From NCBI GenBank assembly GCA_025544715.1, contig GCA_025544715.1_4109.3: 64,000 nucleotides of DNA; one strand, given 5' to 3'. Shown piece by piece: positions 6,869-52,587 of the stretch. Below the pieces are notes generated by a model, which did no database searches, had not been told where the DNA came from, and worked only from the letters and a program-made list of their open reading frames with translations. The DNA is from Escherichia coli (lineage in GTDB: Bacteria > Pseudomonadota > Gammaproteobacteria > Enterobacterales > Enterobacteriaceae). Made by a program: the position numbers and the translations under genes. Each line of letters opens with the position of its first letter. The stretch's first letter is position 1.

Positions 6869-7981
6869 TTAGAACATTTGTTTGATTGCTTCGTAACGAA
6901 GTTCACAAACAAAATCACGAATTTCTGACGTTTCAAGTTCACCATCTTTAACCATTTGCTGAATATCAGGTAATTCAACATCAGTATAACGATCATAAAC
7001 TTTAATAATTAGATCTTCAAGTTCTAAATCAATTTCTTTTCGCAAAATGAAGTATTCCAAAACTTTATAAAGGAATTCTTCACCTCCGTTATTTTTAATA
7101 TTCATATCCAATAAAATATTACCCATTTCAATTGGGGTCTTTTTACGGAATGTTTTGATATCATCACGGAAACGTTTGATATAATTACTAAATTTAACAT
7201 ACTTAACTGGAACTTTAATAGCACCGTTAAGTACTGAATCATTATTTACTTCTTCATTTTCTAGAAGAATAGACCACAGAAAATATGGTTTATATACATC
7301 AGTACAGTTATCTGAAATATAATCAATAAGGTCTAAATTCTTTTTGGTCAAAGATGTATTAAACACCTTTTCGTAATAACCAAATTTACTTAGCGTCTTA
7401 AGGAACTTTGAAGGCTTTTCTTCAGAAAATGCTTTTTCGAATTCCACAAAAACACGGTCAGGAACAAGATGATTTAGCTCACCACTATTGACCATTCCAA
7501 TAGCGAGTTCCTCAGTGCTTTCATGAATAGTAAAGTCTGAATAACGAGTAGCAAATCGAGCAAGACGTAACACGCGTAATGGATCTTCTTTAAAATGGTC
7601 AGAAACATGACGTAGTACCTTGTTCTTGATATCAGCTTTACCACCGTATGGATCGATGTGAATTTGTAGTACTGGATCATACGCAATTGCATTAATTGTA
7701 AGGTCACGGCGATACAAATCTTGTTCTAGTGTTACGCCTTTTGTATCCACTTCAAAGCCACCATATCCAGTACCAGTTTTACGCTCAGTACGGGCTAATG
7801 CGTGTTCATTACCTTCTGGACTTAGATATACTGGGAAATCCTTACCTACTTGCTTATAGCCAATACTTTGCAAGTACTTAAGATCAGATTCGGATGCACC
7901 AACAATGACATAATCTTTGTCTTTTGCACGAAGACCCATTAAACGGTCACGGACGTAACCGCCAACCAAATACTTTTTCAT
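6869..7981 (-). CDS. cca: tRNA nucleotidyltransferase (CCA-adding enzyme / poly(A) polymerase family)
   Basis: Head-domain motifs GGYVRDRLMG...DKDYV and RRDLTINA. Confidence 0.75.
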   Translation of the reverse strand: MKKYLVGGYVRDRLMGLRAKDKDYVIVGASESDLKYLQSIGYKQVGKDFPVYLSPEGNEHALARTERKTGTGYGGFEVDTKGVTLEQDLYRRDLTINAIAYDPVLQIHIDPYGGKADIKNKVLRHVSDHFKEDPLRVLRLARFATRYSDFTIHESTEELAIGMVNSGELNHLVPDRVFVEFEKAFSEEKPSKFLKTLSKFGYYEKVFNTSLTKKNLDLIDYISDNCTDVYKPYFLWSILLENEEVNNDSVLNGAIKVPVKYVKFSNYIKRFRDDIKTFRKKTPIEMGNILLDMNIKNNGGEEFLYKVLEYFILRKEIDLELEDLIIKVYDRYTDVELPDIQQMVKDGELETSEIRDFVCELRYEAIKQMF

Positions 7982-8116
7982 GTTATTCCCCCATCAACCA
8001 ATCACGTAGACGTTCCCAGAAGCCTTTTGGTTGGTATTCTGGGTATTCATATTCATCAGTGCCTTGCTCGGAAACACCCCAATCTTCTTCTAGCATAGCA
8101 ATCATAATGCCTCCAA

Positions 8117-8539
8117 TTAAATTAATCTGTCACGTAGACGGTCGTAATATTTTTTGTGTATAGCTAGTATACACTGATATGCAGAATAGTCAATACCAAA
8201 TGTATCATCAATGAACATGTACTGATCAAGTGTTTCGGGTCCATTATCATCAACTGGTAATGTCCCTTCTTTTTTTGATAGTGTGTGCCACATCAACTCA
8301 CTTTCAATATGGTGAGTTGCGTATGTCAATTCTATCTTACTTTTTCGTAGTAAAATTAACAATTCATCATTGTCGTCGAGTGCATTACGAAATTTAATAC
8401 GAACTGTACCCTGGAAATTATTAGTGTACATAACACGATGATGATTGTATGAAATCAAACCACGCCTTTCAGTACTGATTTCGTGTTCAGCAAAGTACTT
8501 TAACGTTTCATTAAATTTTGGAATTTTAGTAACGTCCAA
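8117..8539 (-). CDS. Hypothetical protein, tandem paralog A
   Basis: Shares YMFIDDTFGIDYSAYQ-like block with adjacent ORF 8526-8942. Confidence 0.5.
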   Translation of the reverse strand: MDVTKIPKFNETLKYFAEHEISTERRGLISYNHHRVMYTNNFQGTVRIKFRNALDDNDELLILLRKSKIELTYATHHIESELMWHTLSKKEGTLPVDDNGPETLDQYMFIDDTFGIDYSAYQCILAIHKKYYDRLRDRLI

Positions 8540-8942
8540 TCACATAATCCTCATAAAGTTCGTATACCCTCATTATACTCTGATATGTATCAAAGTCAAT
8601 ACCAAAGGTATCCTCAATGAACTGATATTGCAAAAACTCTTCCTCTGTGGCAGCAATAGGAAGAGTCCCGTTTCGTTGTTCTGGGGATTGAACATCCTCA
8701 ATATACATCAACACTATACCTTCATCCAGATTTATATCTATCATAAAAACATCTTCACTATAAAATATGTTATATGTACGGATGAAGAGATTTCCTGTTC
8801 TATCATAACTTGACACGTGTGTTTCATAATACATTTTATCTAAACTAAAGAACAAACCTGTACTATCTGGCTTTTTAGTATTTTTTAATTTAATTTCGAT
8901 AGCATCAATAATAGGTTTAATATCAAACTTTTTCATAGACAA
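8526..8942 (-). CDS. Hypothetical protein, tandem paralog B
   Basis: Shares YQFIEDTFGIDFDTYQ block with 8117-8539. Confidence 0.5.
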   Translation of the reverse strand: MSMKKFDIKPIIDAIEIKLKNTKKPDSTGLFFSLDKMYYETHVSSYDRTGNLFIRTYNIFYSEDVFMIDINLDEGIVLMYIEDVQSPEQRNGTLPIAATEEEFLQYQFIEDTFGIDFDTYQSIMRVYELYEDYVIGRY

Positions 8943-41042: not shown

Positions 41043-42482
41043 TTACATATTTTCTTCAGCAAATTCAGCCAGTGGTGAACGAACAACACCTTCTAGTTCG
41101 ATGACACGACAACCTGCCCAGTCTTTAAACTTCTCAGTTACATAAGTCAAACCACTGTTAACTGGACTAATAAACTTACTGTCAATCTGACTCAAGTTAC
41201 CCATAATTACTACTTTACAGTTTAACCCTGCTCGTGTCAAGATGGTTTTTGCTTGTGCAGGTGTAATGTTTTGGAATTCATCAACTACTAGAATAGTGTT
41301 GGTGAATGAACGTCCACGTACAAAGTTTAGTGCTTTAAATTGAATAACATTACGTTTCATAATCTCTTCAATACTACCTTGTGGGTTAGCATCATCTTTA
41401 TGAAGAAACTCTAACGCATCAATCGCGGCTCCACAGAATGGAATCACTTTTTCTGCTTCTGAACCTGGCAAGAAACCAATATCTTCAAACTGTGAGTCTT
41501 GAGTTTTAGAGAAGATGATTCGGTCGTATTTACGTTTTTCCAGTACTAATTCCAATGCAGTAGCAATCGTAATTAGTGTTTTACCAGTACCAGCAGAACC
41601 TAGCAGTACTGTTAGATGTACATCAGGATCGAGAATACTGTTGATAGCGAGTGCTTGTTGGATATTCTTTGCTTTAATATCCCATACTTTAGCACGTAAA
41701 GCCACTGATTGTCCAATGTCTTGGAATACCAAAATATCTTCTGGTGTTAGTGTTCCATCATCTTCCTCAATTGCTGATTGTCCTTCGTACACAAATAATA
41801 CGTCAGCATCATCATATAGGTAATCACCGATGCATAGATTTTGTGGAAGCAGATGTTCAATCAAGCTTTTAGAAATGTAATGATACAAACGACGACCAAC
41901 TTGTTCGGATTGAATATTAGTATTGGTTAAGTTGCTGTATACTTCCCAAAAATTGATTTCCAGATGGTGTTGACCAATGTGAATCAAATCACTATCACCA
42001 ATAACAATATCATGGCGATAATCTTGTACCTCGACACCATAACTTAGTGCTTTGATACGCATGTTGATATCACGAGTTACCAGTACTGATTCTGTTGCTA
42101 AAGCTACCAGAATGATTTTATCATCAGGTACAGTACTTTTGAGAAGGGTTTGAACTTTCTCTTCTGTACCTTTAGTACGAATTAGTGCCTCAGCTTCTTC
42201 GTTTGTAATAACAAACAATTTGCTATCAGGATTCATATTGGTATGAACATCAGCAATATTAACACCAGTACTACTAATCTCGTCATGTGATGCATCTGCA
42301 ATAATTGCTTCAATGTTACGAATAGCAACACGTGCATCGCGTGAAACATCTACATTACGACTCTTAATCGAATCTAATTCTTCCAGTACTGTAAATGGTA
42401 GAATGATTGCAGCACCATCAAAAGCAATAGATGCATTAGGGTCAGATAGTAGTACGTTTGTGTCAATTGTATATTTTTTCAT
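41043..42482 (-). CDS. phoH: PhoH-family ATPase with N-terminal PIN domain (PhoH2-type)
   Basis: Walker A GSAGTGKT; N-terminal PIN-like YTIDTNVLLSDP. Confidence 0.7.
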   Translation of the reverse strand: MKKYTIDTNVLLSDPNASIAFDGAAIILPFTVLEELDSIKSRNVDVSRDARVAIRNIEAIIADASHDEISSTGVNIADVHTNMNPDSKLFVITNEEAEALIRTKGTEEKVQTLLKSTVPDDKIILVALATESVLVTRDINMRIKALSYGVEVQDYRHDIVIGDSDLIHIGQHHLEINFWEVYSNLTNTNIQSEQVGRRLYHYISKSLIEHLLPQNLCIGDYLYDDADVLFVYEGQSAIEEDDGTLTPEDILVFQDIGQSVALRAKVWDIKAKNIQQALAINSILDPDVHLTVLLGSAGTGKTLITIATALELVLEKRKYDRIIFSKTQDSQFEDIGFLPGSEAEKVIPFCGAAIDALEFLHKDDANPQGSIEEIMKRNVIQFKALNFVRGRSFTNTILVVDEFQNITPAQAKTILTRAGLNCKVVIMGNLSQIDSKFISPVNSGLTYVTEKFKDWAGCRVIELEGVVRSPLAEFAEENM

Positions 42483-43171: not shown

Positions 43172-43723
43172 CTATAGATAACTAATTAGTAAGTTTTCTT
43201 TTTGAACCAGATACTCCAATTCTTGTTTTGCTGTACCGATGAAGTTCTGTGTCATAAGATTATTATATCCCGCTTCTCGATTTTGTCCCTTAGAATAACG
43301 AGAAATATGACATAAATTTACACCAGCAACTTCAGCACTCGCATGTTTAGCATTAGTGTATCCATCTCTAATGTGTTTCAACTCGTCATAGCTTACTTCA
43401 TAGCTAAAACTATGACTGTTTGCACCTGGGTAAATTTCAAAAGTTTTGAGTGGTCGGAGATGGGAAACAAAAATATTGTAATCCATTTCTTCTTGAACTT
43501 CACGACGCAATGCATCTTCTAATGAGATATCAGTACTTTCTACGGTTCCACCACATCCACCAAGAAGACCATCCCATCGTAATTGTAGTAAAACTAAATT
43601 TACTTCTGGTATATCATTCAACTCATAGTTTTTGTAAGGGTTGCATTTTCTTGCAAAGAAATAACAAAATACAAAATTTGCACGTGAGCCATATTCACCA
43701 AAGGGAACTTCTTTAACACTCAT
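43172..43723 (-). CDS. Nudix-like hydrolase (second copy)
   Basis: Degenerate Nudix box ...RREVQEEMDY; operon with Sir2 and CPR. Confidence 0.5.
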   Translation of the reverse strand: MSVKEVPFGEYGSRANFVFCYFFARKCNPYKNYELNDIPEVNLVLLQLRWDGLLGGCGGTVESTDISLEDALRREVQEEMDYNIFVSHLRPLKTFEIYPGANSHSFSYEVSYDELKHIRDGYTNAKHASAEVAGVNLCHISRYSKGQNREAGYNNLMTQNFIGTAKQELEYLVQKENLLISYL

Positions 43724-44478
43724 TTCATACGTTCCTTAATTATAGTCTCTAGATGTGGTATTGCTTTGGTTGCTGGCTTGATAACTTTTTCATTAAACAA
43801 AAAATCATTATCATTTTTACGAATGTTAACATTAACACTATAACATGGCAATGCTGCTGCTAATCTCGACCATACCAGTACTGTATCGCTACTACCAATT
43901 ACAATAACTGTATCATTTTCATTAAGAGATTTCAACACATTATTTCGTTCTTCGTAAATTGGTAAGCGAATACCATCAACATAACGATGATATTCTCCAA
44001 TCATTACTACATTTGGTTTAGCAAAAACATCATGCTTTGGTATGTATGGTTCGTATCCGCAGTTAATAACATTATAATCATCGGAATTAATACTATAATT
44101 TTCAATAACTTCGCACAAGTTTCCATGAAGTTTAAGCTCATGACCACCAATACGAGTATAAAGATCATCCATGTTAGAAGTCATATGAAGGAAGCAATCA
44201 CCATATTGATCTTCTAACGATTTTATAAAATAATGCATTGCATTGGGTTCGCATTGTCCCAATTTTACACGTAATGTATTATAGAAGGAATGAACAACGT
44301 GATATTTTGTAGTTAAACTAGCAATGTTACATACATCATTAATTTTAAATGTATCCCACAAACCATCATCAAATCGAAAAGGTTCCATACCACTTTCAAC
44401 GGAAAGTCCTGCACCTGATATAATCAGTAATCGTTTTTTACCTTCATTGCTTATAAATTTTTCTGATATCATATTCAA
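43720..44478 (-). CDS. Sir2-family (sirtuin/CobB-like) NAD-dependent enzyme
   Basis: GAGLSVESGMEPFR, PNAMH, TSNMDDLYTRIG, HGNL align with CobB GAGISAESGIRTFR, PNAAH, TQNIDNLHERAG, HGEL. Confidence 0.75.
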   Translation of the reverse strand: MNMISEKFISNEGKKRLLIISGAGLSVESGMEPFRFDDGLWDTFKINDVCNIASLTTKYHVVHSFYNTLRVKLGQCEPNAMHYFIKSLEDQYGDCFLHMTSNMDDLYTRIGGHELKLHGNLCEVIENYSINSDDYNVINCGYEPYIPKHDVFAKPNVVMIGEYHRYVDGIRLPIYEERNNVLKSLNENDTVIVIGSSDTVLVWSRLAAALPCYSVNVNIRKNDNDFLFNEKVIKPATKAIPHLETIIKERMK

Positions 44479-44481
44479 TCC

Positions 44482-44676
44482 TTATAAAAAACCAATTAAA
44501 TATATTGATAATAACAGAATGATTCCAATATGATAGGCATACATAAAATTATTATCTTTGTGATAACCTTTGGATGTCAAGTCCCTATATAAGCATTTAG
44601 CATTGTTATAAATTACAACAATAGAAAAAACTATAAAAAAACTCAAAACCCATTCATAAATTGTGTATGCCATCAT
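44482..44676 (-). CDS. Small membrane protein (64 aa)
   Basis: Two hydrophobic helices. Confidence 0.35.
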   Translation of the reverse strand: MMAYTIYEWVLSFFIVFSIVVIYNNAKCLYRDLTSKGYHKDNNFMYAYHIGIILLLSIYLIGFL

Positions 44677-44694
44677 CTATTCTCTCTTATAATT

Positions 44695-45291
44695 TTAATA
44701 CTTTAAAACATCAAACTCTGCACTTACACTAGTTACATTATCACTGACAATTTTAAAAATTGATTTGATGCGTTCATGTAGTGGTACTTTTGATTCATTC
44801 TCAACTTCAATATATGCTTGCATTGCTGCAATAGCATGATATGTCCCGCTACCTACGGCTGTGATTCGTGTTTTCGGTTGAAGAACTGAAAAATCTTCTT
44901 GAACTTCATAAATTGTATGATTGTGGAGAATGATGAACTGACCACCACCTACTTCTTGTGAAGGATCACGAGAACCCCATTCCTCTTTGAACATTTGACG
45001 AATAATAGGAATAACTTTCAGTACTAAGTACTGTGGGAACGTCTCATTGGCATCTTGCTGTGGTAGATTCAAACTGTAAGTAAGAAGTTGACCCATACGG
45101 AATGATGTGGTGTAACCAATCGCCATAATTTCTTTTGTACGGGTCAAACCAGCATCATCATTGATTTTAATGAATTCTTTCTCAAATACTTTAGGCTCAG
45201 TTTGAACTGATTTTGTGAAACCATTACTTCCTAGTTTGTCCCCTGCAATAAAAGAAGTTACACCATCAGTGTGTGCAATGATACATGTCAT
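44695..45291 (-). CDS. HslV/proteasome-beta-like Ntn-hydrolase (start MTCIIA at 45291)
   Basis: N-terminal Met-Thr, IAGD and GSGTYHAIAA blocks parallel HslV; ATGA overlap with upstream gene. Confidence 0.5.
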   Translation of the reverse strand: MTCIIAHTDGVTSFIAGDKLGSNGFTKSVQTEPKVFEKEFIKINDDAGLTRTKEIMAIGYTTSFRMGQLLTYSLNLPQQDANETFPQYLVLKVIPIIRQMFKEEWGSRDPSQEVGGGQFIILHNHTIYEVQEDFSVLQPKTRITAVGSGTYHAIAAMQAYIEVENESKVPLHERIKSIFKIVSDNVTSVSAEFDVLKY

Positions 45292-45548
45292 AAAATAGCT
45301 CCAATTGCAAATAAAGTTGTATATAAAATATAAATCAATGTACCTAATAACATTAGACACACCAAATATGATGTTGCCAGAACATAATAAATTATTGCTT
45401 CAAACTTTGAATTGAACTTCATTGTTGTGTTATCAATAAAGCCATTTTTGTAATCTTTGTAAATGAAAACTGTTAGGAAAAGTACAGTAATATACATCAC
45501 TACTGTAGCATAAAAAATAATAGATGTCAAATTTTGGATGTTTGTCAT
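45288..45548 (-). CDS. Membrane protein (86 aa)
   Basis: Hydrophobic helices. Confidence 0.4.
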   Translation of the reverse strand: MTNIQNLTSIIFYATVVMYITVLFLTVFIYKDYKNGFIDNTTMKFNSKFEAIIYYVLATSYLVCLMLLGTLIYILYTTLFAIGAIL

Positions 45549-45618
45549 AGTTATATAATCTCAATATAATTAATAACAAAGGAAGTACAACATAATCATC
45601 CTGTTATTTTAATTATTT

Positions 45619-46227
45619 TTATTGGTTTACTGATCCATATCGGATTAGTTCAGTTTTTGTCAAGATAACAACATCTTCACCACGAGAACGGCTAACTTTA
45701 TATAGAACGTCTGGTGGAATTCCATTTGCAGAATATAGTGTAAATAGAAAACCTACTTTAGTTGCCATTTCTTCAGTAAAAGTTGATAGCTGCCTAACTG
45801 ATACAAAAGAATTATCACCGTCTTTAACATTACTTTTAATAGAAATGTTATGAAGTCCCAGTACTGAGCGATTTATCATGTATCGCTTTTCAAAAGCTAC
45901 ACTAAAGAATACCACAGTACATGCTGAGTTGCAATACCTAGAAACAATTAAATTTATACCATTGTCTCTAACGAAGTTTGCCATTTTAATTCCAGCATCA
46001 AAATCACCACCTGGTGATGTGATTGTAATGGTATCATAGTGTTCTTTATCATACAACTCCATCATACGCTTGAGTGATCCATCTGTAATATCTGAGATGA
46101 AATATACATTACGTGTTTCTGGATTGTACTTTATCACATTTTTACGTTCAACACCAGCACTGGCTGGAAAATTTATCAACATCAGAAGCATTACTGCTTG
46201 TACTACCTCAAGCCATAGTCTTTTCAT
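45619..46227 (-). CDS. Secreted ClpP/S49-fold serine peptidase-like protein
   Basis: Signal-peptide-like N-terminus; ITSPGGDFDAG motif. Confidence 0.5.
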   Translation of the reverse strand: MKRLWLEVVQAVMLLMLINFPASAGVERKNVIKYNPETRNVYFISDITDGSLKRMMELYDKEHYDTITITSPGGDFDAGIKMANFVRDNGINLIVSRYCNSACTVVFFSVAFEKRYMINRSVLGLHNISIKSNVKDGDNSFVSVRQLSTFTEEMATKVGFLFTLYSANGIPPDVLYKVSRSRGEDVVILTKTELIRYGSVNQ

Positions 46228-46255
46228 AACAAATCCTTAATTTTGGTTAGGAAGA

Positions 46256-46263
46256 TATAAATA
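46256..46263 (+). promoter_or_regulatory. T4-late-promoter-like box TATAAATA (plus strand)
   Basis: Exact octamer ~150 nt upstream of plus-strand gene start. Confidence 0.25.
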
Positions 46264-46409
46264 ATATAGTACTTAAACACTTAAGTCAAACTTTTTCTGT
46301 ACTTAACTCAAATTTCCCTCATCAGATAATCCCCTTAGTACAATCACTGTGAAGATTCTATCACAAACCCATACCAAATGTAAAGCTTTTTTTATAAGGA
46401 GTGCCCTTC

Positions 46410-48335
46410 ATGGGAAAACCAATTGCAGGACAAGACCAATTTCCATTCACTATAGGTGGATATTTAGTTGATGGTGCAAACATAAAAGGTACAACATATG
46501 TAAAATCGTTGTACATCTACAAACAGCGTTCCTCTGATTTGTATGATTTAATGGATTCAAATGGAACAATATATCGTTTTATTCGTATTGTTGGATATGG
46601 TCAAGATGGTAACAGATTAAATTATTTTACACCAGCAGAAGAAATTGTACCAAATCTGGCGACCAATACATTTTTTATAAAAGTTCAAGATGCTGAAAGA
46701 AATATATTTTCATTTGTTAGATTGTACCAATTAAATAAAATAATAACATTCGATGGTGATTATATTTTTAGAAAAATAGATAAAGATCGTTATCTAAGTG
46801 GTGTGTTAATTCAACCATCATTAACTACATTACAAGTTGGTAAAACCAGTTCACTGCATTGTGTATTCTACCCTAATGATTACTATGATACTGATGGAAC
46901 TTGGTACATAAACGACCATTCTGATATAAATCCAGAAATACCTAGTAAGTATGCTAAAATCATAGAATATAATAAAAATGAAGTATCTATTGAAGGAACA
47001 TCGGTGGGTATGTCAATACTTTCATTTGTTCCTAAAAATAATAAATCCATAATTTCACATTCTCTTATTAACATTGTTAATGAAAATGTAGATATAGAAT
47101 ACATGGTTGCCGAAAGAAGTTCTCCATTTTTTAATCATTATATTGGCAATGAATGGACTATTCAAATAGTCACATATCCGTATGACGCGACTATACAATA
47201 CCCTCTTGAAATCGTAATCGATGCGGAAGTAGATCCTTATATGAAAATTGCCACTACCGAGTTAGTTGGAGTCTCTGAAAATAATAAAATATATACATTT
47301 AAATCAACACTTGAGCCAGATTTAGAATATTATATAGATTATTATCCACAAATCACCTTCACTATGAATGAACCTTACAAATTTAGTGCATTGTTTGAAA
47401 ATAAAATTTGTTTGTCTGGTTGGGAAAGATATTGTGAAAAAATTACCAGTCCTGGAAAGTTATTTTCTATTGATGAATATGTACGTCCAAACACGACTAA
47501 AACATTAAAATATTGGTTAATGAATGATTATGACCAACATATGTATCCAATACGTTCAACTGATGATGAAATTGCCACAATTGATGTAACAACTGGTATA
47601 TTGAGAACTTACGATAAAAGAGGAACAGTATCTTTCTATACAAATTATACTGATATAACTACTGGGGCCATTAGTCAAGATGAATATTTAGTTGGGAAAC
47701 TAACCGTTACAGACGATGTGTACGATTTAATCGAGGTAGAACCATCAAATATACAATATATGTTCCCAAATCAATCACAACAATTCACGTTAACTGGTTA
47801 TAGAGAAGGTTATCCAAATACATCTTTTAATGTTAATGTAAGTATGTTGAACAATTATGCAACTTCTTCAAACAATATCGTCACTATTAACGAAAATACA
47901 TCTAATAACTCTAGATTTAAGATAGTATCAGATTTCAATGGTAATTATAAAAACTTTAGTAGTATATATTCTAATCAAACACCATCTATTATAGTAAAAA
48001 CAAATCCAAATGATTTAACTCCAATACAAAGTATTGATGTTTCTGAAAATGAAATTTTATCTATAAGAATGGCTGAAGAAAATGAAATAGATGATTATAA
48101 AGTTAGTTTTTATCCAAAACCAAATTATTGTGTTAATTATGAACTTGAAATTGTATCATATGATAATACTATAATTGAAATATATGATAAAGAAAATGCA
48201 TTAAAAAACGGGCTAAATTATTATGGTAATATTATGTTATACATAACACCAAAAAGTCCTGGAAGTACCGAGATTGTTGTTAGATCTGTTCATTACCCAG
48301 ATGTACAACAATCTGTAAAAGTAGTTGTTTATTAA
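46410..48335 (+). CDS. Plus-strand large protein (641 aa from ATG 46410), possible virion decoration/adhesin
   Basis: AGGAG RBS 9 nt upstream; N-terminal ~110 aa paralogous to next gene; Asn/Ser/Thr/Tyr-rich. Confidence 0.55.
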   Translation: MGKPIAGQDQFPFTIGGYLVDGANIKGTTYVKSLYIYKQRSSDLYDLMDSNGTIYRFIRIVGYGQDGNRLNYFTPAEEIVPNLATNTFFIKVQDAERNIFSFVRLYQLNKIITFDGDYIFRKIDKDRYLSGVLIQPSLTTLQVGKTSSLHCVFYPNDYYDTDGTWYINDHSDINPEIPSKYAKIIEYNKNEVSIEGTSVGMSILSFVPKNNKSIISHSLINIVNENVDIEYMVAERSSPFFNHYIGNEWTIQIVTYPYDATIQYPLEIVIDAEVDPYMKIATTELVGVSENNKIYTFKSTLEPDLEYYIDYYPQITFTMNEPYKFSALFENKICLSGWERYCEKITSPGKLFSIDEYVRPNTTKTLKYWLMNDYDQHMYPIRSTDDEIATIDVTTGILRTYDKRGTVSFYTNYTDITTGAISQDEYLVGKLTVTDDVYDLIEVEPSNIQYMFPNQSQQFTLTGYREGYPNTSFNVNVSMLNNYATSSNNIVTINENTSNNSRFKIVSDFNGNYKNFSSIYSNQTPSIIVKTNPNDLTPIQSIDVSENEILSIRMAEENEIDDYKVSFYPKPNYCVNYELEIVSYDNTIIEIYDKENALKNGLNYYGNIMLYITPKSPGSTEIVVRSVHYPDVQQSVKVVVY

Positions 48336-48351
48336 TAAGAGGAAATAAAAT

Positions 48352-48729
48352 ATGAAAGCTATAGCAGCACAAGGTAAATTACCATTCAATATCGGCGGCT
48401 TTTGTGTAACCGCAGCTAATATAAACGGTGAATTGAAATATAACTTGAACATCTTTAATCAACGTTCTAGTTGTGTTTACGATCTTATCGACACTGATTT
48501 TAATGTTTATCGTTTTGTAACTATAACAAGTTTTGATAAAGATAAAATCAGATTAGACGCATCTAAAACTGCACTAGAGATTGCACCAACTTTAGCAAAA
48601 AATACTTTTTGTATTAAGATTGATGATAGTGCATTTGCCGAATCATTCCAGTTTCATAAAATTAAATTGAGTACTGGAGAAATGAAATATCACCCTTGGG
48701 ATTTGTATTATTGTAACATCCCTGGTTAA
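48352..48729 (+). CDS. Plus-strand protein (125 aa), paralog of N-terminal domain of 46410-48335
   Basis: AAGAGGA RBS; shared blocks PFxIGG..., RSSxxYDL, YRFxxI. Confidence 0.55.
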   Translation: MKAIAAQGKLPFNIGGFCVTAANINGELKYNLNIFNQRSSCVYDLIDTDFNVYRFVTITSFDKDKIRLDASKTALEIAPTLAKNTFCIKIDDSAFAESFQFHKIKLSTGEMKYHPWDLYYCNIPG

Positions 48730-48730
48730 C

Positions 48731-48760
48731 AAAAAAGGAGCCACAAGGCTCCTTTTTTTT
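48731..48760. terminator. Bidirectional terminator between convergent plus and minus genes
   Basis: Hairpin GGAGCC-ACAA-GGCTCC flanked by A6 and T8. Confidence 0.7.
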
Positions 48761-49016
48761 ATTCTACAGTATTAAGCTTCTGACAAATCATGTCAGCTTC
48801 TACTCGGTCTTTATAATAAATGGTAAATCCAAATCTACTTGTTACCCTTTTCTCACTACGGTGTATACAGTTTACAATATAGTACTTATTATTTTGTGCA
48901 GAAAAACGAACTTCATAATTTCGAAAATAAGTATTAGGTTCATCTATAGCAACTATATATAACATAAAAATGAAAAGCACTATTATTAGAAAAGCAATAA
49001 TAATTATTACTGTCAT
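48759..49016 (-). CDS. Small membrane protein (85 aa)
   Basis: N-terminal hydrophobic helix. Confidence 0.4.
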   Translation of the reverse strand: MTVIIIIAFLIIVLFIFMLYIVAIDEPNTYFRNYEVRFSAQNNKYYIVNCIHRSEKRVTSRFGFTIYYKDRVEADMICQKLNTVE

Positions 49017-49504
49017 TTATCAAGACCCTTATCATAAATGCAATTAACAATAATTCCAGCATCTTCCAGTACTTTAATAGCTTCTGGTGGTGTACGAGGA
49101 TAATTTTTGAGATAAATTACACGTGAAATACCACTACCCGCAATCAACTTAGAACAAGTATAACATGGTTGTAGTGTTGTGTAAAGAGTAGCACCTTGAC
49201 GTTCAGTAGGAGAACTATAGAGTAAAGCGTTCATTTCGGCATGGATTTCATGAATATTACTCCACTCATGATGTTGATGCTTTGCTTCATCACTAACCCA
49301 GTCTTGAAAAGACCCATCATTTACTAAGTGTTGATTCACGTCACAGCAATTTGGTTGTTTTGATGGAGTACCATTGTATCCAGTACTCAATACTCGATTA
49401 TTTTTAACAATAACACAACCAACTTTTTGTGAAATACATTTACTTTCCTCAGCAACTACTTCTGCTATCTTCAACCAAGTCGTATGTTTCATTATAAGCT
49501 CCAA
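49013..49504 (-). CDS. cd: dCMP deaminase
   Basis: HAEMNAL...PCYTCSKLIAGSGISRVIY and N-terminal VGCVIVKNNRVLSTGYNG. Confidence 0.8.
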   Translation of the reverse strand: MELIMKHTTWLKIAEVVAEESKCISQKVGCVIVKNNRVLSTGYNGTPSKQPNCCDVNQHLVNDGSFQDWVSDEAKHQHHEWSNIHEIHAEMNALLYSSPTERQGATLYTTLQPCYTCSKLIAGSGISRVIYLKNYPRTPPEAIKVLEDAGIIVNCIYDKGLDK

Positions 49505-49973
49505 TACTTAACAATGCGTTTTTACACAAATCATGAATTTTCATAACTCGAATATAGTTTAACACATCTGTTTCATTAATTTCAAATGGTTTATCTGCAT
49601 ATGTAGACCACGTTTGATTTAATTCAATAACAAATGTAATTTTATCTGTATCCATAATATTATCACAAAATCTACGAAAATCTTGCTCTTCATCGGAAAG
49701 TCTGAAATTTAAATCATTTTTTAAACCATTAACTGTGAAGCAAATACCAGTACTGTAACCTATGCAAATATCTTCAATATCATATAATCCATAAATTAAT
49801 TTAGAGATAAACGTGCTATATTTGTTTCTATGATAATAGTTTAATATTTCTTTTTTAATATTATTTTCAATATCAGTAGTTTTTTGTAATGTAAGTTTAA
49901 TTAATTCTAATGTCTTGATTATGTTATCTAACCAGATATTAGTATCATCTATACTTAGGTGTGTGTATTTCAT
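49449..49973 (-). CDS. Hypothetical protein (174 aa)
   Basis: ORF in array. Confidence 0.4.
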   Translation of the reverse strand: MKYTHLSIDDTNIWLDNIIKTLELIKLTLQKTTDIENNIKKEILNYYHRNKYSTFISKLIYGLYDIEDICIGYSTGICFTVNGLKNDLNFRLSDEEQDFRRFCDNIMDTDKITFVIELNQTWSTYADKPFEINETDVLNYIRVMKIHDLCKNALLSIGAYNETYDLVEDSRSSC

Positions 49974-50499
49974 TATGTCCCTCTAGATTCCAATCATCAA
50001 CGAGTTTAGAACAAACTTCCATATGATTATAGTACTTTTCATTCAATACATAAGGTTTATTATGATATTGTCGTACATCAGTGAATATATCATAATTTCT
50101 ATATATGAATGACATATTTTTGTGCATGAATTCTATAGTTTTCCAAATCTTTTCTATATCATATAAAATTGTTTTTAATGATAAACCTGTAAGCTTTGAA
50201 ATTCTTTCAACTTTAAAACCGGATAACATCATAGTATTATTGTGTTTAGTCAAATAACTATATCCAATTGAACTATGTATCATTTCTACACTATCAACTT
50301 GTGTTATTGTTTTTAAAAATGACTTTAAATTTCTATTAAACCAATACCACTTTTTGTTTTTATTATAACATGAATACCATTTCTTCAATATATCAATTGC
50401 TTCAGAATTAATTTTCAAAGCAAACTCATCAATTAAAAACATATGATGATAAAAAATATCACTTTGTTCTTCAGTTAAATTATATTGCTGCATATTCAC
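49945..50499 (-). CDS. Hypothetical protein (184 aa)
   Basis: ORF in array. Confidence 0.4.
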   Translation of the reverse strand: MNMQQYNLTEEQSDIFYHHMFLIDEFALKINSEAIDILKKWYSCYNKNKKWYWFNRNLKSFLKTITQVDSVEMIHSSIGYSYLTKHNNTMMLSGFKVERISKLTGLSLKTILYDIEKIWKTIEFMHKNMSFIYRNYDIFTDVRQYHNKPYVLNEKYYNHMEVCSKLVDDWNLEGHNEIHTPKYR

Positions 50500-50576
50500 C
50501 TACCCTAGTAACAATGATTCCTTGGGTATTTAGCTTATATAGATCATTTTTTGATCGATGAAAATTGATATACAGC

Positions 50577-50606
50577 AATAAAAAGAGGAATCCAGTACTG
50601 GATTCC
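50577..50606 (-). terminator. Terminator formed by 20-nt perfect palindrome GGAATCCAGTACTGGATTCC
   Basis: Perfect palindrome centred on CAGTACTG; T-rich tract follows on minus strand. Confidence 0.55.
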
Positions 50607-50617
50607 TATTTGTAATA

Positions 50618-51064
50618 TTATTTTTGATATGGGGTGTACTGATATTTTTCACAATCAGAAACAGTTAGGACACCTTCATCATAACCATATTGAAGTACAA
50701 GGTCAAATGCTTTATCAACCATAGCAACAACATCTTTATAACGAACAATCTTATGAGATTGATTCTCAACTGCTTTCATAATCCCCATTAGCAACCAGCG
50801 ACCTTCATCGGTGTGTAATTTAGCAAAACGTGGACGCTTTGTTGCTGCCATAATATCAGTCCATTCAGCTTTAAAAATGTGTGGACGTTTTGGAATATCA
50901 TATAGTGTAGTAGGGAAAGTTACATTATTTTTCTTCATTGCTTCTGCTTGTGCTGCACGATAGCCCTGACGATATAATGGATGCTGCATTTTTAGCTGTT
51001 CAGCACTTAGAACTACTTTTGCTTTGTATGCGTCATAACCATCTTTATATTGTGCATTGGACAT
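50618..51064 (-). CDS. Hypothetical protein (148 aa)
   Basis: ORF followed by palindromic terminator. Confidence 0.45.
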   Translation of the reverse strand: MSNAQYKDGYDAYKAKVVLSAEQLKMQHPLYRQGYRAAQAEAMKKNNVTFPTTLYDIPKRPHIFKAEWTDIMAATKRPRFAKLHTDEGRWLLMGIMKAVENQSHKIVRYKDVVAMVDKAFDLVLQYGYDEGVLTVSDCEKYQYTPYQK

Positions 51065-51065
51065 A

Positions 51066-51383
51066 TTATTCTTTTACCTCATCAGTTTGAATGTATTTTT
51101 TGTCAGAGAATGTACCGTGTTCTTTACGCACAGCTTCTGCATGTTGAACCGCATCAACTGGATTAATGTTCTTTTTAATTAGTACTTCTTTCATTAATTC
51201 AAGTACAATTGCAAAACCATTTAGTACACGCTCAGATTCATCCACATTTTTTAACTCAAGTGCTACTGCACTAATTTGATCGAACGCAACATTAATAAAA
51301 TCGGAATCTTCTAATACATTTGCTACTTCCGTATTATTACGTACTAGTACTTTCATATAATCTCCACAAAGATGATGCCCCAA
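51066..51383 (-). CDS. Hypothetical protein (105 aa)
   Basis: ORF in array. Confidence 0.45.
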   Translation of the reverse strand: MGHHLCGDYMKVLVRNNTEVANVLEDSDFINVAFDQISAVALELKNVDESERVLNGFAIVLELMKEVLIKKNINPVDAVQHAEAVRKEHGTFSDKKYIQTDEVKE

Positions 51384-51404
51384 ATTGAGGCATCAAAATC
51401 TATC

Positions 51405-52100
51405 TTACACCCACTCTTCCACACCACCGCGACGCTTAACTAAGTACTTGCCTTCTTCGTTACGTGGTCCAAGAATAATACCATCAATGAAACCATGTTC
51501 ACCATATTCAAGTGCTTCTTCTGCATTTAACCACAAATCTCGGTCAGCATCTTTTAGTAATTGTTCATGTGATACACCTACTGCTTCTGCAATTTCTTTG
51601 GTCAACAATGTATTCAGTGCATCAGAATGTTGTAGTGAAATCTTCTGGTCTGTAATTAGACCTTGTGTACCAGAACTTACTTGGTGACACATGAAGTATG
51701 AGCGTTTACCACCTAAACGGAAACCTTTAGTTCCAATAACAGATTGTGTATAGCAACCCATTGATGCTGCATAACCCATAACTACAGTGCGAATTGGGGA
51801 AATACAAGACTTAGCAACGTCTGCAATACCCAAACCTGCGTGTACTGAACCACCTGGTGAACTAATGTAGAATGTAATAGGGGAATCACCTTGTGAGTCT
51901 AACCACACCAATTGTTGTTTGATGATATGTGCCATTTGATCATTGAAATCAGTATCAAGGAAAATGATACGGTCTTGCATCATACGAGATGCTAGATCAT
52001 ATGTACGTTCTGAACCATTAACTTTCTCAACTACGTAAGGAATAGAAATGTTACGTACTTCGCCATTAGCATAACCACCAAACATGAATTGTTCAACCAT
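51405..52100 (-). CDS. clpP: ATP-dependent Clp protease proteolytic subunit
   Basis: ISSPGGSVHAG, GYAASMG (Ser) and MCHQ (His) in ClpP order. Confidence 0.8.
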   Translation of the reverse strand: MVEQFMFGGYANGEVRNISIPYVVEKVNGSERTYDLASRMMQDRIIFLDTDFNDQMAHIIKQQLVWLDSQGDSPITFYISSPGGSVHAGLGIADVAKSCISPIRTVVMGYAASMGCYTQSVIGTKGFRLGGKRSYFMCHQVSSGTQGLITDQKISLQHSDALNTLLTKEIAEAVGVSHEQLLKDADRDLWLNAEEALEYGEHGFIDGIILGPRNEEGKYLVKRRGGVEEWV

Positions 52101-52164
52101 TGTTAATTTCCTCTATTATTTCGTTGTTGTGAGTATTATATCACTAAGATTTAAAATGTCCAAA

Positions 52165-52587
52165 CTATTTTACTGGAATATTTGAAAAGAAATCAGTCAT
52201 CCAATACGCCGTTTCTTTGTTGAATAATACTGGATCAAACTTAAGTAACTCAACATGACTTGTATCATACACGCTTGTATCGGTAATGTCAAACAAAGTT
52301 TTAGTACTGAATAGTGGGTTACTCACTAGAAAGTAGTAATCAGCAGTACTGCTAATGTCATCATAAAACACACCGTCATACCATCCATCATCATATACAA
52401 AAACAGAATCGTCTTGAAGATAGTAAACTTCTATATGTAAACTCAAGATCTTCATGGTTTCAATCATTTTTGCCGTATGAGGATTTAACTTATTGACATT
52501 TTCAAACACATAAGAGTGTTTTTCATTCATATCAACAAATGAAAATATTCGTACTGCACGTATATTCATATTACTCCAAATAAACAA
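52165..52587 (-). CDS. Hypothetical protein (140 aa)
   Basis: ORF in array. Confidence 0.45.
   Translation of the reverse strand: MFIWSNMNIRAVRIFSFVDMNEKHSYVFENVNKLNPHTAKMIETMKILSLHIEVYYLQDDSVFVYDDGWYDGVFYDDISSTADYYFLVSNPLFSTKTLFDITDTSVYDTSHVELLKFDPVLFNKETAYWMTDFFSNIPVK

Follow-up and report, generated by a model that had tools for sequence, protein, structure and literature searches.

Relatives of cellular peptidases and of their unfoldases have been described in several phage lineages. Iyer et al. 2021 (PMC7824862) list ClpP, ClpS and ClpA in jumbo phages and propose a use of this ClpP against the host; most Rak2-like phages have a conserved ClpA (Attai et al. 2018, PMC6102473); and a set of phage-borne group I proteasome homologues (PPH, AAH, and CPH) radiates from BPH and HslV (Fuchs, Alva and Lupas 2021, PMC8665760). 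The closest cellular systems are the ClpAPS machine of Escherichia coli, HslV (ClpQ), whose partner HslU is normally encoded in the same operon, and the ATP-independent, envelope-located ClpP/crotonase-fold peptidases SppA (S49) and NfeD/STOPP. We analyzed three peptidase genes in a 64,000-nucleotide stretch of DNA from an E. coli assembly (GCA_025544715.1, contig GCA_025544715.1_4109.3; the whole stretch is hereafter called the window). All three lie on the minus strand: an HslV-like gene (44695–45291), a leader-bearing ClpP-fold gene (45619–46227), and a clpP gene (51405–52100). We consider it fairly probable that their products are accessory, non-structural peptidases of a 121Q-like jumbo phage that are unrelated to one another, namely the core of a ClpAP machine, an exported Ser-His peptidase, and a threonine peptidase that works without an unfoldase. 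The three would operate differently from each other, within a block of early, metabolic, and host-interaction genes. A giant coliphage would thus invest in three different proteolytic machines besides its capsid protease.

The window belongs to an Asteriusvirus, a giant (jumbo) coliphage of the 121Q/PBECO4 type. Megablast of window positions 44000–52500 against phage genomes gave 97% identity to Escherichia phage 121Q and ~94% identity to PBECO4, phAPEC6, Sharanji, and further Asteriusvirus jumbo myoviruses. A first-pass annotation of the window had placed three peptidases here, and open reading frames (ORFs) of 198 amino acids (aa; HslV-like, counted from its Met-Thr start), 202 aa (leader-bearing), and 231 aa (ClpP) are indeed present at those positions. 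Each has a Shine-Dalgarno-like motif 7–9 nt 5' of its ATG, and all are real genes rather than chance ORFs, because all have many conserved homologues. In tblastn searches against 121Q, the HslV-like protein corresponded to gp475 (100% identity), the leader-bearing protein to gp473 (97.5%), and ClpP to gp464 (100%). GenBank labels these 121Q products "protease (ClpYQ-like) / peptidase HslV family" (gp475), "protease (ClpP-like)" (gp473), and "protease (ClpP-like) / head maturation protease" (gp464). Given this near-identity to annotated genes, the observation of three peptidases was correct but already public, and the families have been discussed in PMC7824862, PMC6102473, and PMC8665760. Since gene content is already on record in GenBank and in these comparative papers, the value of the present analysis lies in refinements: the ClpP is probably not an orphan, its docking pocket appears altered, the HslV-like protein is best viewed as a phage proteasome homologue without an unfoldase, and the leader-bearing protein would belong to an exported CxSxC family. 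We infer enzymatic activity for all three proteins, and every substrate considered below is likewise putative.

Judged by its sequence, the product of 51405–52100 is a true ClpP (PF00574, MEROPS S14) with a complete Ser-His-Asp triad. It matched Pfam CLP_protease at E = 4e-41 (141.3 bits against a gathering score of 20.2), and phmmer against the Protein Data Bank recovered >100 ClpP chains, with E-values down to 1e-36, over residues 20–208. Ser113, His139, and Asp188 align with S97, H122, and D171 of E. coli ClpP, and the triad was invariant across 74 phage-clade and 43 cellular ClpP sequences. The phage protein shares the fold family and the Ser-to-His spacing of E. coli ClpP at about 36% identity, but differs in an 18-aa N-terminal and a roughly 25-aa C-terminal extension, and it stays below the NCBIfam cut-offs for bacterial ClpP (155 versus 249 bits, and 152 versus 309 bits).

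As the first-pass annotation had noted, the window contains no homologue of ClpX, ClpA, or HslU (tblastn with the E. coli proteins). The idea of an orphan ClpP arose because no more than 64 kb of the roughly 350-kb genome was in view. Phage 121Q likewise lacks an HslU or ClpX homologue. It does encode gp581 (298257–300545), a 762-aa protein with 43% identity to E. coli ClpA over 732 residues, the match spanning the N-domain, both AAA modules, and the D2-small domain (Pfam AAA, AAA_lid_9, AAA_2, and ClpB_D2-small). The protein has two Walker A motifs and the GYVG pore loop, and its docking loop is SIGM, against SIGL in E. coli. The docking tripeptide is IGV in the ClpA homologue of K64-1, LGM in that of CBB, and IGF in those of PA5oct and Atu_ph07; the retention of this loop ([IL]G[MVF]) indicates that the Rak2-like ClpA homologues are ClpP-docking unfoldases and not ClpB-like disaggregases. 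Matches to ClpA and ClpP co-occur in the Rak2-like genomes of SP27, K64-1, Muenster, SE_PL, XbC2, fHe-Yen9-04, Serratia BF, pEa_SNUABM_47, PA5oct, Cassandra, Atu_ph07, and JNE01. A third component may be gp48 of 121Q (NC_025447, 34461–35006), which contains a ClpS domain above the Pfam gathering score and is 181 aa long, compared with 106 aa for E. coli ClpS. In contrast to the E. coli system, all components are phage-encoded and their genes are dispersed in 121Q, about 80 kb and 180 kb apart, with clpA about 80 kb from clpP. The omics paper on PA5oct gave no information on the timing of Clp expression.

The 51405–52100 product is therefore best read, in our view, as the protease subunit of a ClpAP machine that the phage itself encodes, perhaps together with a ClpS-like adaptor, rather than as an orphan ClpP; this preference follows from the presence in the lineage of a ClpA with a docking loop and of a ClpS-like protein. 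In this machine, the phage ClpA would use ATP to unfold substrates and would engage ClpP with its IGM loop, and the ClpS-like protein may assist. The idea that ClpP must hijack host unfoldases for want of a partner is not supported, since 121Q encodes gp581 and gp48.

The docking surface of the phage ClpP appears to have diverged from that of its cellular relatives. We compared the 74 phage-clade and 43 cellular sequences at the E. coli ClpP residues that we take, from the E. coli literature, to form the hydrophobic pocket for the unfoldase IGF/IGL loop (E. coli numbering). Position 82 is F or Y in 39/43 cellular sequences and N, S, Q, or G in the phage clade, whereas position 114 is L in 40/43 cellular sequences and G in 62/74 phage-clade sequences. 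These positions correspond to S98 and G131 of the window ClpP. Elsewhere in the pocket the window protein retains Y62, M92, and L189 and carries a conservative I90-to-V exchange; F82 has become S and L114 has become G, and changes at these two positions extend through the clade. Such a pattern is compatible with a co-adapted interface in which the two changed positions make the phage ClpA-ClpP pair partly private. This altered pocket is a new detail and belongs to the least charted parts of the system.

Several points speak against a ClpAP machine of this kind. The clpA and clpS genes are known from 121Q and its relatives, while our view of the window's own genome spans 64 kb. The pocket changes could equally mean that the phage ClpP docks no unfoldase canonically or enters mixed rings with the ClpP of the host. 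The ClpS-like gp48 keeps, in the BLASTP alignment, only one of the three E. coli ClpS residues that we take to bind N-degrons (D35 is kept, D36 is replaced by P and H66 by N). With two of these three presumed contact residues changed and the binding pocket diverged, gp48 may not be a true N-degron adaptor and may recognize something other than classical N-degrons.

The HslV-like protein combines the catalytic apparatus of HslV with a sequence far removed from it. Although the program-made ORF list opened the gene at a GTG codon (45360), the Met-Thr start at 45291 is the right one, because M1 and T2 are invariant among 55 homologues (down to 30% identity), a GGAG motif precedes the ATG, and the TGA of the upstream 86-aa ORF shares bases with it in an ATGA overlap. 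Also invariant among these homologues are D18, K34, and G147, and G149 of the GSG motif (147–149) is at least 90% conserved. Counted from the Thr that follows the Met, T2, D18, and K34 become Thr1, Asp17, and Lys33, the same numbered positions as in HslV, and GSG aligns with the HslV GSGG. The predicted structure has a proteasome-beta fold with a beta-sandwich core and two helix pairs (H2 at 85–105), and the protein resembles HslV in size and in lacking a long propeptide. The first-pass statement of a Met-Thr N-terminus without an HslU partner in view was thus borne out.

Profile searches set the protein apart from HslV proper. Pfam returned no match, and in particular none to Proteasome, and the NCBIfam HslV models scored 18.3 bits against a cut-off of 157.75 (TIGR03692) and 19.2 bits against 137 (NF003964), so that an assignment to HslV on profile criteria was rejected. 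Searches of solved structures with phmmer gave noise-level matches to recoverin and fluorescent proteins for both the HslV-like and the leader-bearing protein. The HslV-like protein is equally close to BPH and HslV. It shares with BPH and the group I homologues a compact subunit without propeptide or C-terminal S12/H5 elements, a complete triad without a linked unfoldase, and an occurrence in Caudoviricetes and prophage-like contexts. Membership of PPH was considered and rejected: PPH are about 140 residues long and lack helix H2 (PMC8665760), whereas the protein here has 198 residues, helix H2, and both helix pairs.

The family is widespread, with at least 595 IMG/VR loci and 197 cultured phages, including T5-like Epseptimavirus and phages of Aeromonas, Vibrio, and Geobacillus. 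No HslU or ClpX homologue was found within 6 kb on either side in 84 loci of the family, and no general set of conserved neighbours emerged from these viral loci; three apparent neighbour clusters (1, 2, and 4) were discarded as antisense ORFs inside the HslV-like gene itself. In small HK97-type phages the gene stands upstream of terminase, portal, S78 protease, and capsid genes, and in large phages it stands amid nucleotide-metabolism and auxiliary genes. We therefore regard the protein as a putative cytoplasmic Thr1 peptidase of the phage-borne group I proteasome homologues, self-contained and without a dedicated unfoldase. Made without a propeptide and lacking such a partner, it would cleave peptides or loosely folded proteins by itself, as seems to be the case for BPH. 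Use of the host HslU by this protein is possible and would count against that assignment.

The same question can be asked of the orphan cores together: they may capture host unfoldases (ClpX or ClpA for ClpP, HslU for the HslV-like protein) and redirect them against host or defence proteins. The window encodes no AAA+ unfoldase, the E. coli host supplies ClpX, ClpA, and HslU, and the N-terminal region of the phage ClpP (IPYVVEKVNGSERTYD) resembles that of E. coli ClpP. Host-directed use would also accord with the proposal of Iyer et al. and with the gene neighbourhood, which includes Sir2 and Nudix and, in relatives, NAMPT and Acb1. However, a ClpA homologue with a loop for docking on ClpP and a ClpS-like protein are encoded within the lineage, Rak2-like phages carry ClpA and ClpP together, and the differences at positions 82 and 114 argue against a simple fit to the host IGF/IGL loops. 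For the HslV-like protein, the scores of 18–19 bits against HslV cut-offs of 137–158 and the equal proximity to BPH, which has no known unfoldase (PMC8665760), point away from HslU. We therefore judge capture of host unfoldases to be rather unlikely and retain a phage-encoded ClpAP core and a stand-alone Thr1 peptidase as our preferred assignments. Of the earlier interpretation as a whole, the peptidase folds with their catalytic residues stood, and the dependence of ClpP on host unfoldases did not.

The third protein (45619–46227) has a ClpP fold with the motifs SPGGD (71–75), C99-N-S101-A-C103, and H126, Ser101 and His126 standing at ClpP spacing, which agrees with the initial description of a ClpP fold with an xSPGG motif. 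With this, the catalytic residues expected of all three proteins (Thr1/Asp17/Lys33 with GSG, Ser101/His126, and the ClpP Ser-His-Asp triad) were found in place. The profile searches gave a more mixed picture: ClpP exceeded its Pfam threshold, but the HslV-like protein fell below the HslV cut-offs, and the leader-bearing protein reached 16.7 bits with CLP_protease, just under the gathering score of 20.2, and 24 bits or less with NCBIfam ClpP-type models (cut-offs 120–361). MAFFT alignment of this protein to ClpP was unreliable beyond the SPGG motif, and structure and family motifs were used for the comparison instead. In the AlphaFold2 model, the N-terminal helix (2–19) is detached from the domain and confidence (predicted local distance difference test, pLDDT) is low at residues 13–29. 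Codons 1–24 (46156–46227, minus strand) read as a putative Sec signal peptide, with MKR, a hydrophobic core, and a presumed cleavage site after FPASA, before G, that fits the -3/-1 rule.

A word-indexed search recovered only 14 relatives, every one of them Rak2-like, whereas profile searching of 1.84 billion representatives returned 2,735 family members at E ≤ 0.001 (50% clustering). S71, G73, G74, C99, S101, C103, and H126 were invariant in 47 diverse members. Among 138 single-domain representatives, 126 had the fixed spacing SxGG-28-CxSxC, most had the His 23–25 residues after the Ser, as in ClpP, 81% had a hydrophobic N-terminal leader, and 18% had a lipobox-like motif. Two source-named members are chromosomal "hypothetical proteins" of Ferrimonas and Undibacterium, and the bacterial gene context of the Ferrimonas member was uninformative. 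Of the features that mark SppA (S49) and NfeD, namely a Ser-Lys dyad and a stomatin partner with an OB domain, the window protein shows none, although some family members weakly match Pfam NfeD1b_N. What it would share with SppA and NfeD/STOPP is an envelope location and independence from ATP.

We hypothesize that the leader-bearing protein is exported through a cleavable Sec leader to work as an ATP-independent, ClpP-fold Ser101-His126 peptidase, either periplasmic or at the membrane. The flanking Cys99 and Cys103 may form a disulfide, and it is this pair around Ser101 that suggests a periplasmic one. Other features of the protein fit this less well. The equivalent of ClpP Asp171 (D186) varies among close homologues (N, K, R, Q, or T), Glu7 and Gln10 of the leader are conserved although such residues are unusual in signal peptides, and the AlphaFold2 model is of moderate quality (pLDDT 71), with low values in the leader and in residues 128–153, the counterpart of the ClpP "handle". 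The case for export draws on a reading of the primary structure and on family statistics. The presumably exported CxSxC family is large, uncurated, and described by no curated model, and like the ClpP pocket it is among the least charted parts of this locus.

We advance only tentatively, as something on balance doubtful, two further readings: that the leader-bearing protein represents a large uncurated family of exported, ATP-independent CxSxC ClpP-fold peptidases, and that Rak2-like phages carry a private ClpA-ClpP pair. If the former were true, CxSxC may be a disulfide or redox gate around the nucleophile, and Rak2-like phages would cut envelope proteins, for example in superinfection exclusion, receptor removal, or lysis control. 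If the latter were true, the interface between an IGM/IGV/LGM loop and a pocket that has Gly114 and is polar at position 82 would be shielded from the Clp proteins of the host and give the phage a degradation channel of its own. The phage ClpA/ClpP set with its ClpS-like protein would lend itself to asking which proteins, of the host or of the phage, the virus must destroy.

The genomic neighbourhood is shared in part with relatives. The genes around the leader-bearing gene run ligase, ClpP, several ORFs, dCMP deaminase, a virion/Big_2 protein on the opposite strand, the leader-bearing gene, further ORFs, and Sir2, and this order is kept in RaK2 and in a metagenomic relative (contig L102). In the window, a Sir2-like gene (43720–44478, minus strand) lies on the downstream side of the HslV-like gene, together with a Nudix gene (43172–43723, minus strand). 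The same island in RaK2 and in the metagenomic relative (L102, 6696–12482) contains NAMPT and an NMNAT/Nudix fusion, and in L102 also a gene of the Acb1 family. On account of the NAMPT, NMNAT/Nudix, and Acb1 genes in the relative's block, the island may be an NAD-related, host-interaction or counter-defence neighbourhood, a reading that is suggestive only. PADLOC defence models gave nothing significant on the three peptidases and their neighbours. ClpP and the leader-bearing protein are ancestral to Rak2-like phages, and the HslV-like gene is confined to Asteriusvirus and a few relatives. We treat the three genes as independent acquisitions that share a genomic island.

Two small hydrophobic proteins of membrane type adjoin the HslV-like gene: an 86-aa protein between the two peptidase genes (45288–45548, minus strand; 121Q gp474, a hypothetical protein), and a 64-aa protein directly downstream (44482–44676, minus strand), linked to the peptidases by position only. 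They raise the alternative that the HslV-like and leader-bearing genes form one module with them, for example for membrane-associated proteolysis in lysis timing or superinfection exclusion. The gene order (ClpP-fold gene, 86-aa membrane protein, ATGA-coupled HslV-like gene, 64-aa membrane protein) would fit, a T5-like phage likewise has the HslV-like gene after a small membrane protein, and in an unrelated 120-kb phage contig a ClpP-fold gene follows the HslV-like gene by 16 bp. Against this, only about 7/84 HslV-like loci have any ClpP-like gene within 6 kb, so that a general pairing of the two is not seen; RaK2 and contig L102 have the leader-bearing gene without the HslV-like gene; the two products are predicted in different compartments; and neither small membrane protein could be placed in a family (Pfam and PHROG gave nothing for the 86-aa protein, PHROG and PADLOC nothing for the 64-aa protein). 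A single module is accordingly improbable, and independent acquisition remains the reading we adopt.

Capsid processing, which the first-pass annotation had also raised, finds its enzyme elsewhere in the genome. In 121Q, gp601 is a T4 gp21-like protease encoded between the portal gene and the genes for scaffold (gp602) and major capsid protein (gp603); the protease, scaffold, and major capsid genes lie at 333.7–336.8 kb, away from the three peptidase genes. Virion mass spectrometry of phAPEC6 (PMC7247149) detected the prohead protease gp227c and did not detect gp345c, gp346c, and gp353c, the homologues of the three peptidases. The three genes thus differ from those of gp21-type prohead proteases both in their location outside the head module, amid ligase, dCMP deaminase, Sir2, Nudix, and PhoH genes, and in the absence of their products from the virion proteome of this close relative. 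What they have in common with gp21-type and ClpP-related head maturation proteases is that they are phage-encoded and that gp464 shares a PHROG/RefSeq label: the PHROG families matched by ClpP are named "head maturation protease" (phrog_94, E = 4.6e-44). The window ClpP scored 155 bits on the cellular ClpP model and only 51 bits, a weak match, on the ClpP-related head-maturation model of NCBIfam (Clp_rel_HeadMat, NF045542), on which scores of 20–51 bits stand against a cut-off of 120. Most likely the RefSeq label of gp464 was carried over from the PHROG families.

The remaining hints of a structural role are few. Virion mass spectrometry of phage CBB found ClpP with one peptide and 4.5% coverage (PMC5259590), a weak point against a purely non-structural set. 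In some small phages the HslV-like gene immediately precedes genes for terminase, portal, protease, and capsid, but these phages also carry their own S78-type prohead protease. In a 128-kb phage contig (ENA ERZ4208449 NODE_57, 7090–8555) the HslV-like gene directly follows a Gp23-like gene, with a 4-nt overlap; the Gp23-like product has 304 aa and matches Pfam Gp23 (major capsid protein) at E = 9e-11. No other case of a directly adjoining head gene was seen for the HslV-like gene. Because an exported protein cannot process cytoplasmic proheads, and given the separate prohead protease, the virion proteome of phAPEC6, and the gene neighbourhood, the view that one or more of the three cut capsid, scaffold, or other virion proteins is very improbable, and a non-structural role is to be preferred for all of them.

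The clpP gene itself looks monocistronic. A terminator-like hairpin (51373–51395, minus strand; 10-bp stem with 5 GC pairs, then a T-rich tail) lies 10 nt after its stop codon, and terminator-like sites are enriched in the region (8 found versus 2.9 ± 1.8 in shuffled sequences). Upstream, a sigma-70-like promoter match (52135–52162, minus strand; TGGACA-16-TATAAT with a TG extended -10) agrees with the consensus, but it counts for little because promoter-like matches in the region are as frequent as expected from shuffles (54 versus 55). A further strong hairpin with a T-rich tail, at 50586–50607, scores as a terminator on both strands.

A possible module exchange was noticed next to the HslV-like gene in unrelated phages. 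In contig L007 (8001–9542) a ClpP-fold protein of 324 aa is encoded downstream of the HslV-like gene, and in the related Aeromonas phage 2L372D (4001–5454) a second proteasome-fold protein of 294 aa occupies that place. The two share a homologous C-terminal extension of ~130 aa (BLASTP E = 1e-18, 36% identity), which looks like a swap of catalytic modules of differing fold on a common C-terminal domain. Both phages also have PhoH genes close to the HslV-like gene. The window has a PhoH-like protein of its own (479 aa, 41043–42482, minus strand; 121Q gp480), whose phAPEC6 homologue gp341c was detected in virions with 31% coverage.

On the opposite strand, a 644-aa ORF (46401–48335, plus strand) and an adjacent 125-aa protein (48352–48729, plus strand) are related: the first ~120 residues of the former are paralogous to the latter, and both match phrog_33171 (E = 3e-21 and 3e-88, respectively). 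The phAPEC6 homologue of the 125-aa protein, gp347, is an abundant virion protein (75% coverage), and a strong hairpin with a T-rich tail (48731–48758) stands 3' of its gene. The sole large gap in the DNA match to 121Q arises because 121Q lacks the 644-aa ORF, and contig L102 encodes a 549-aa Big_2 protein in its place.

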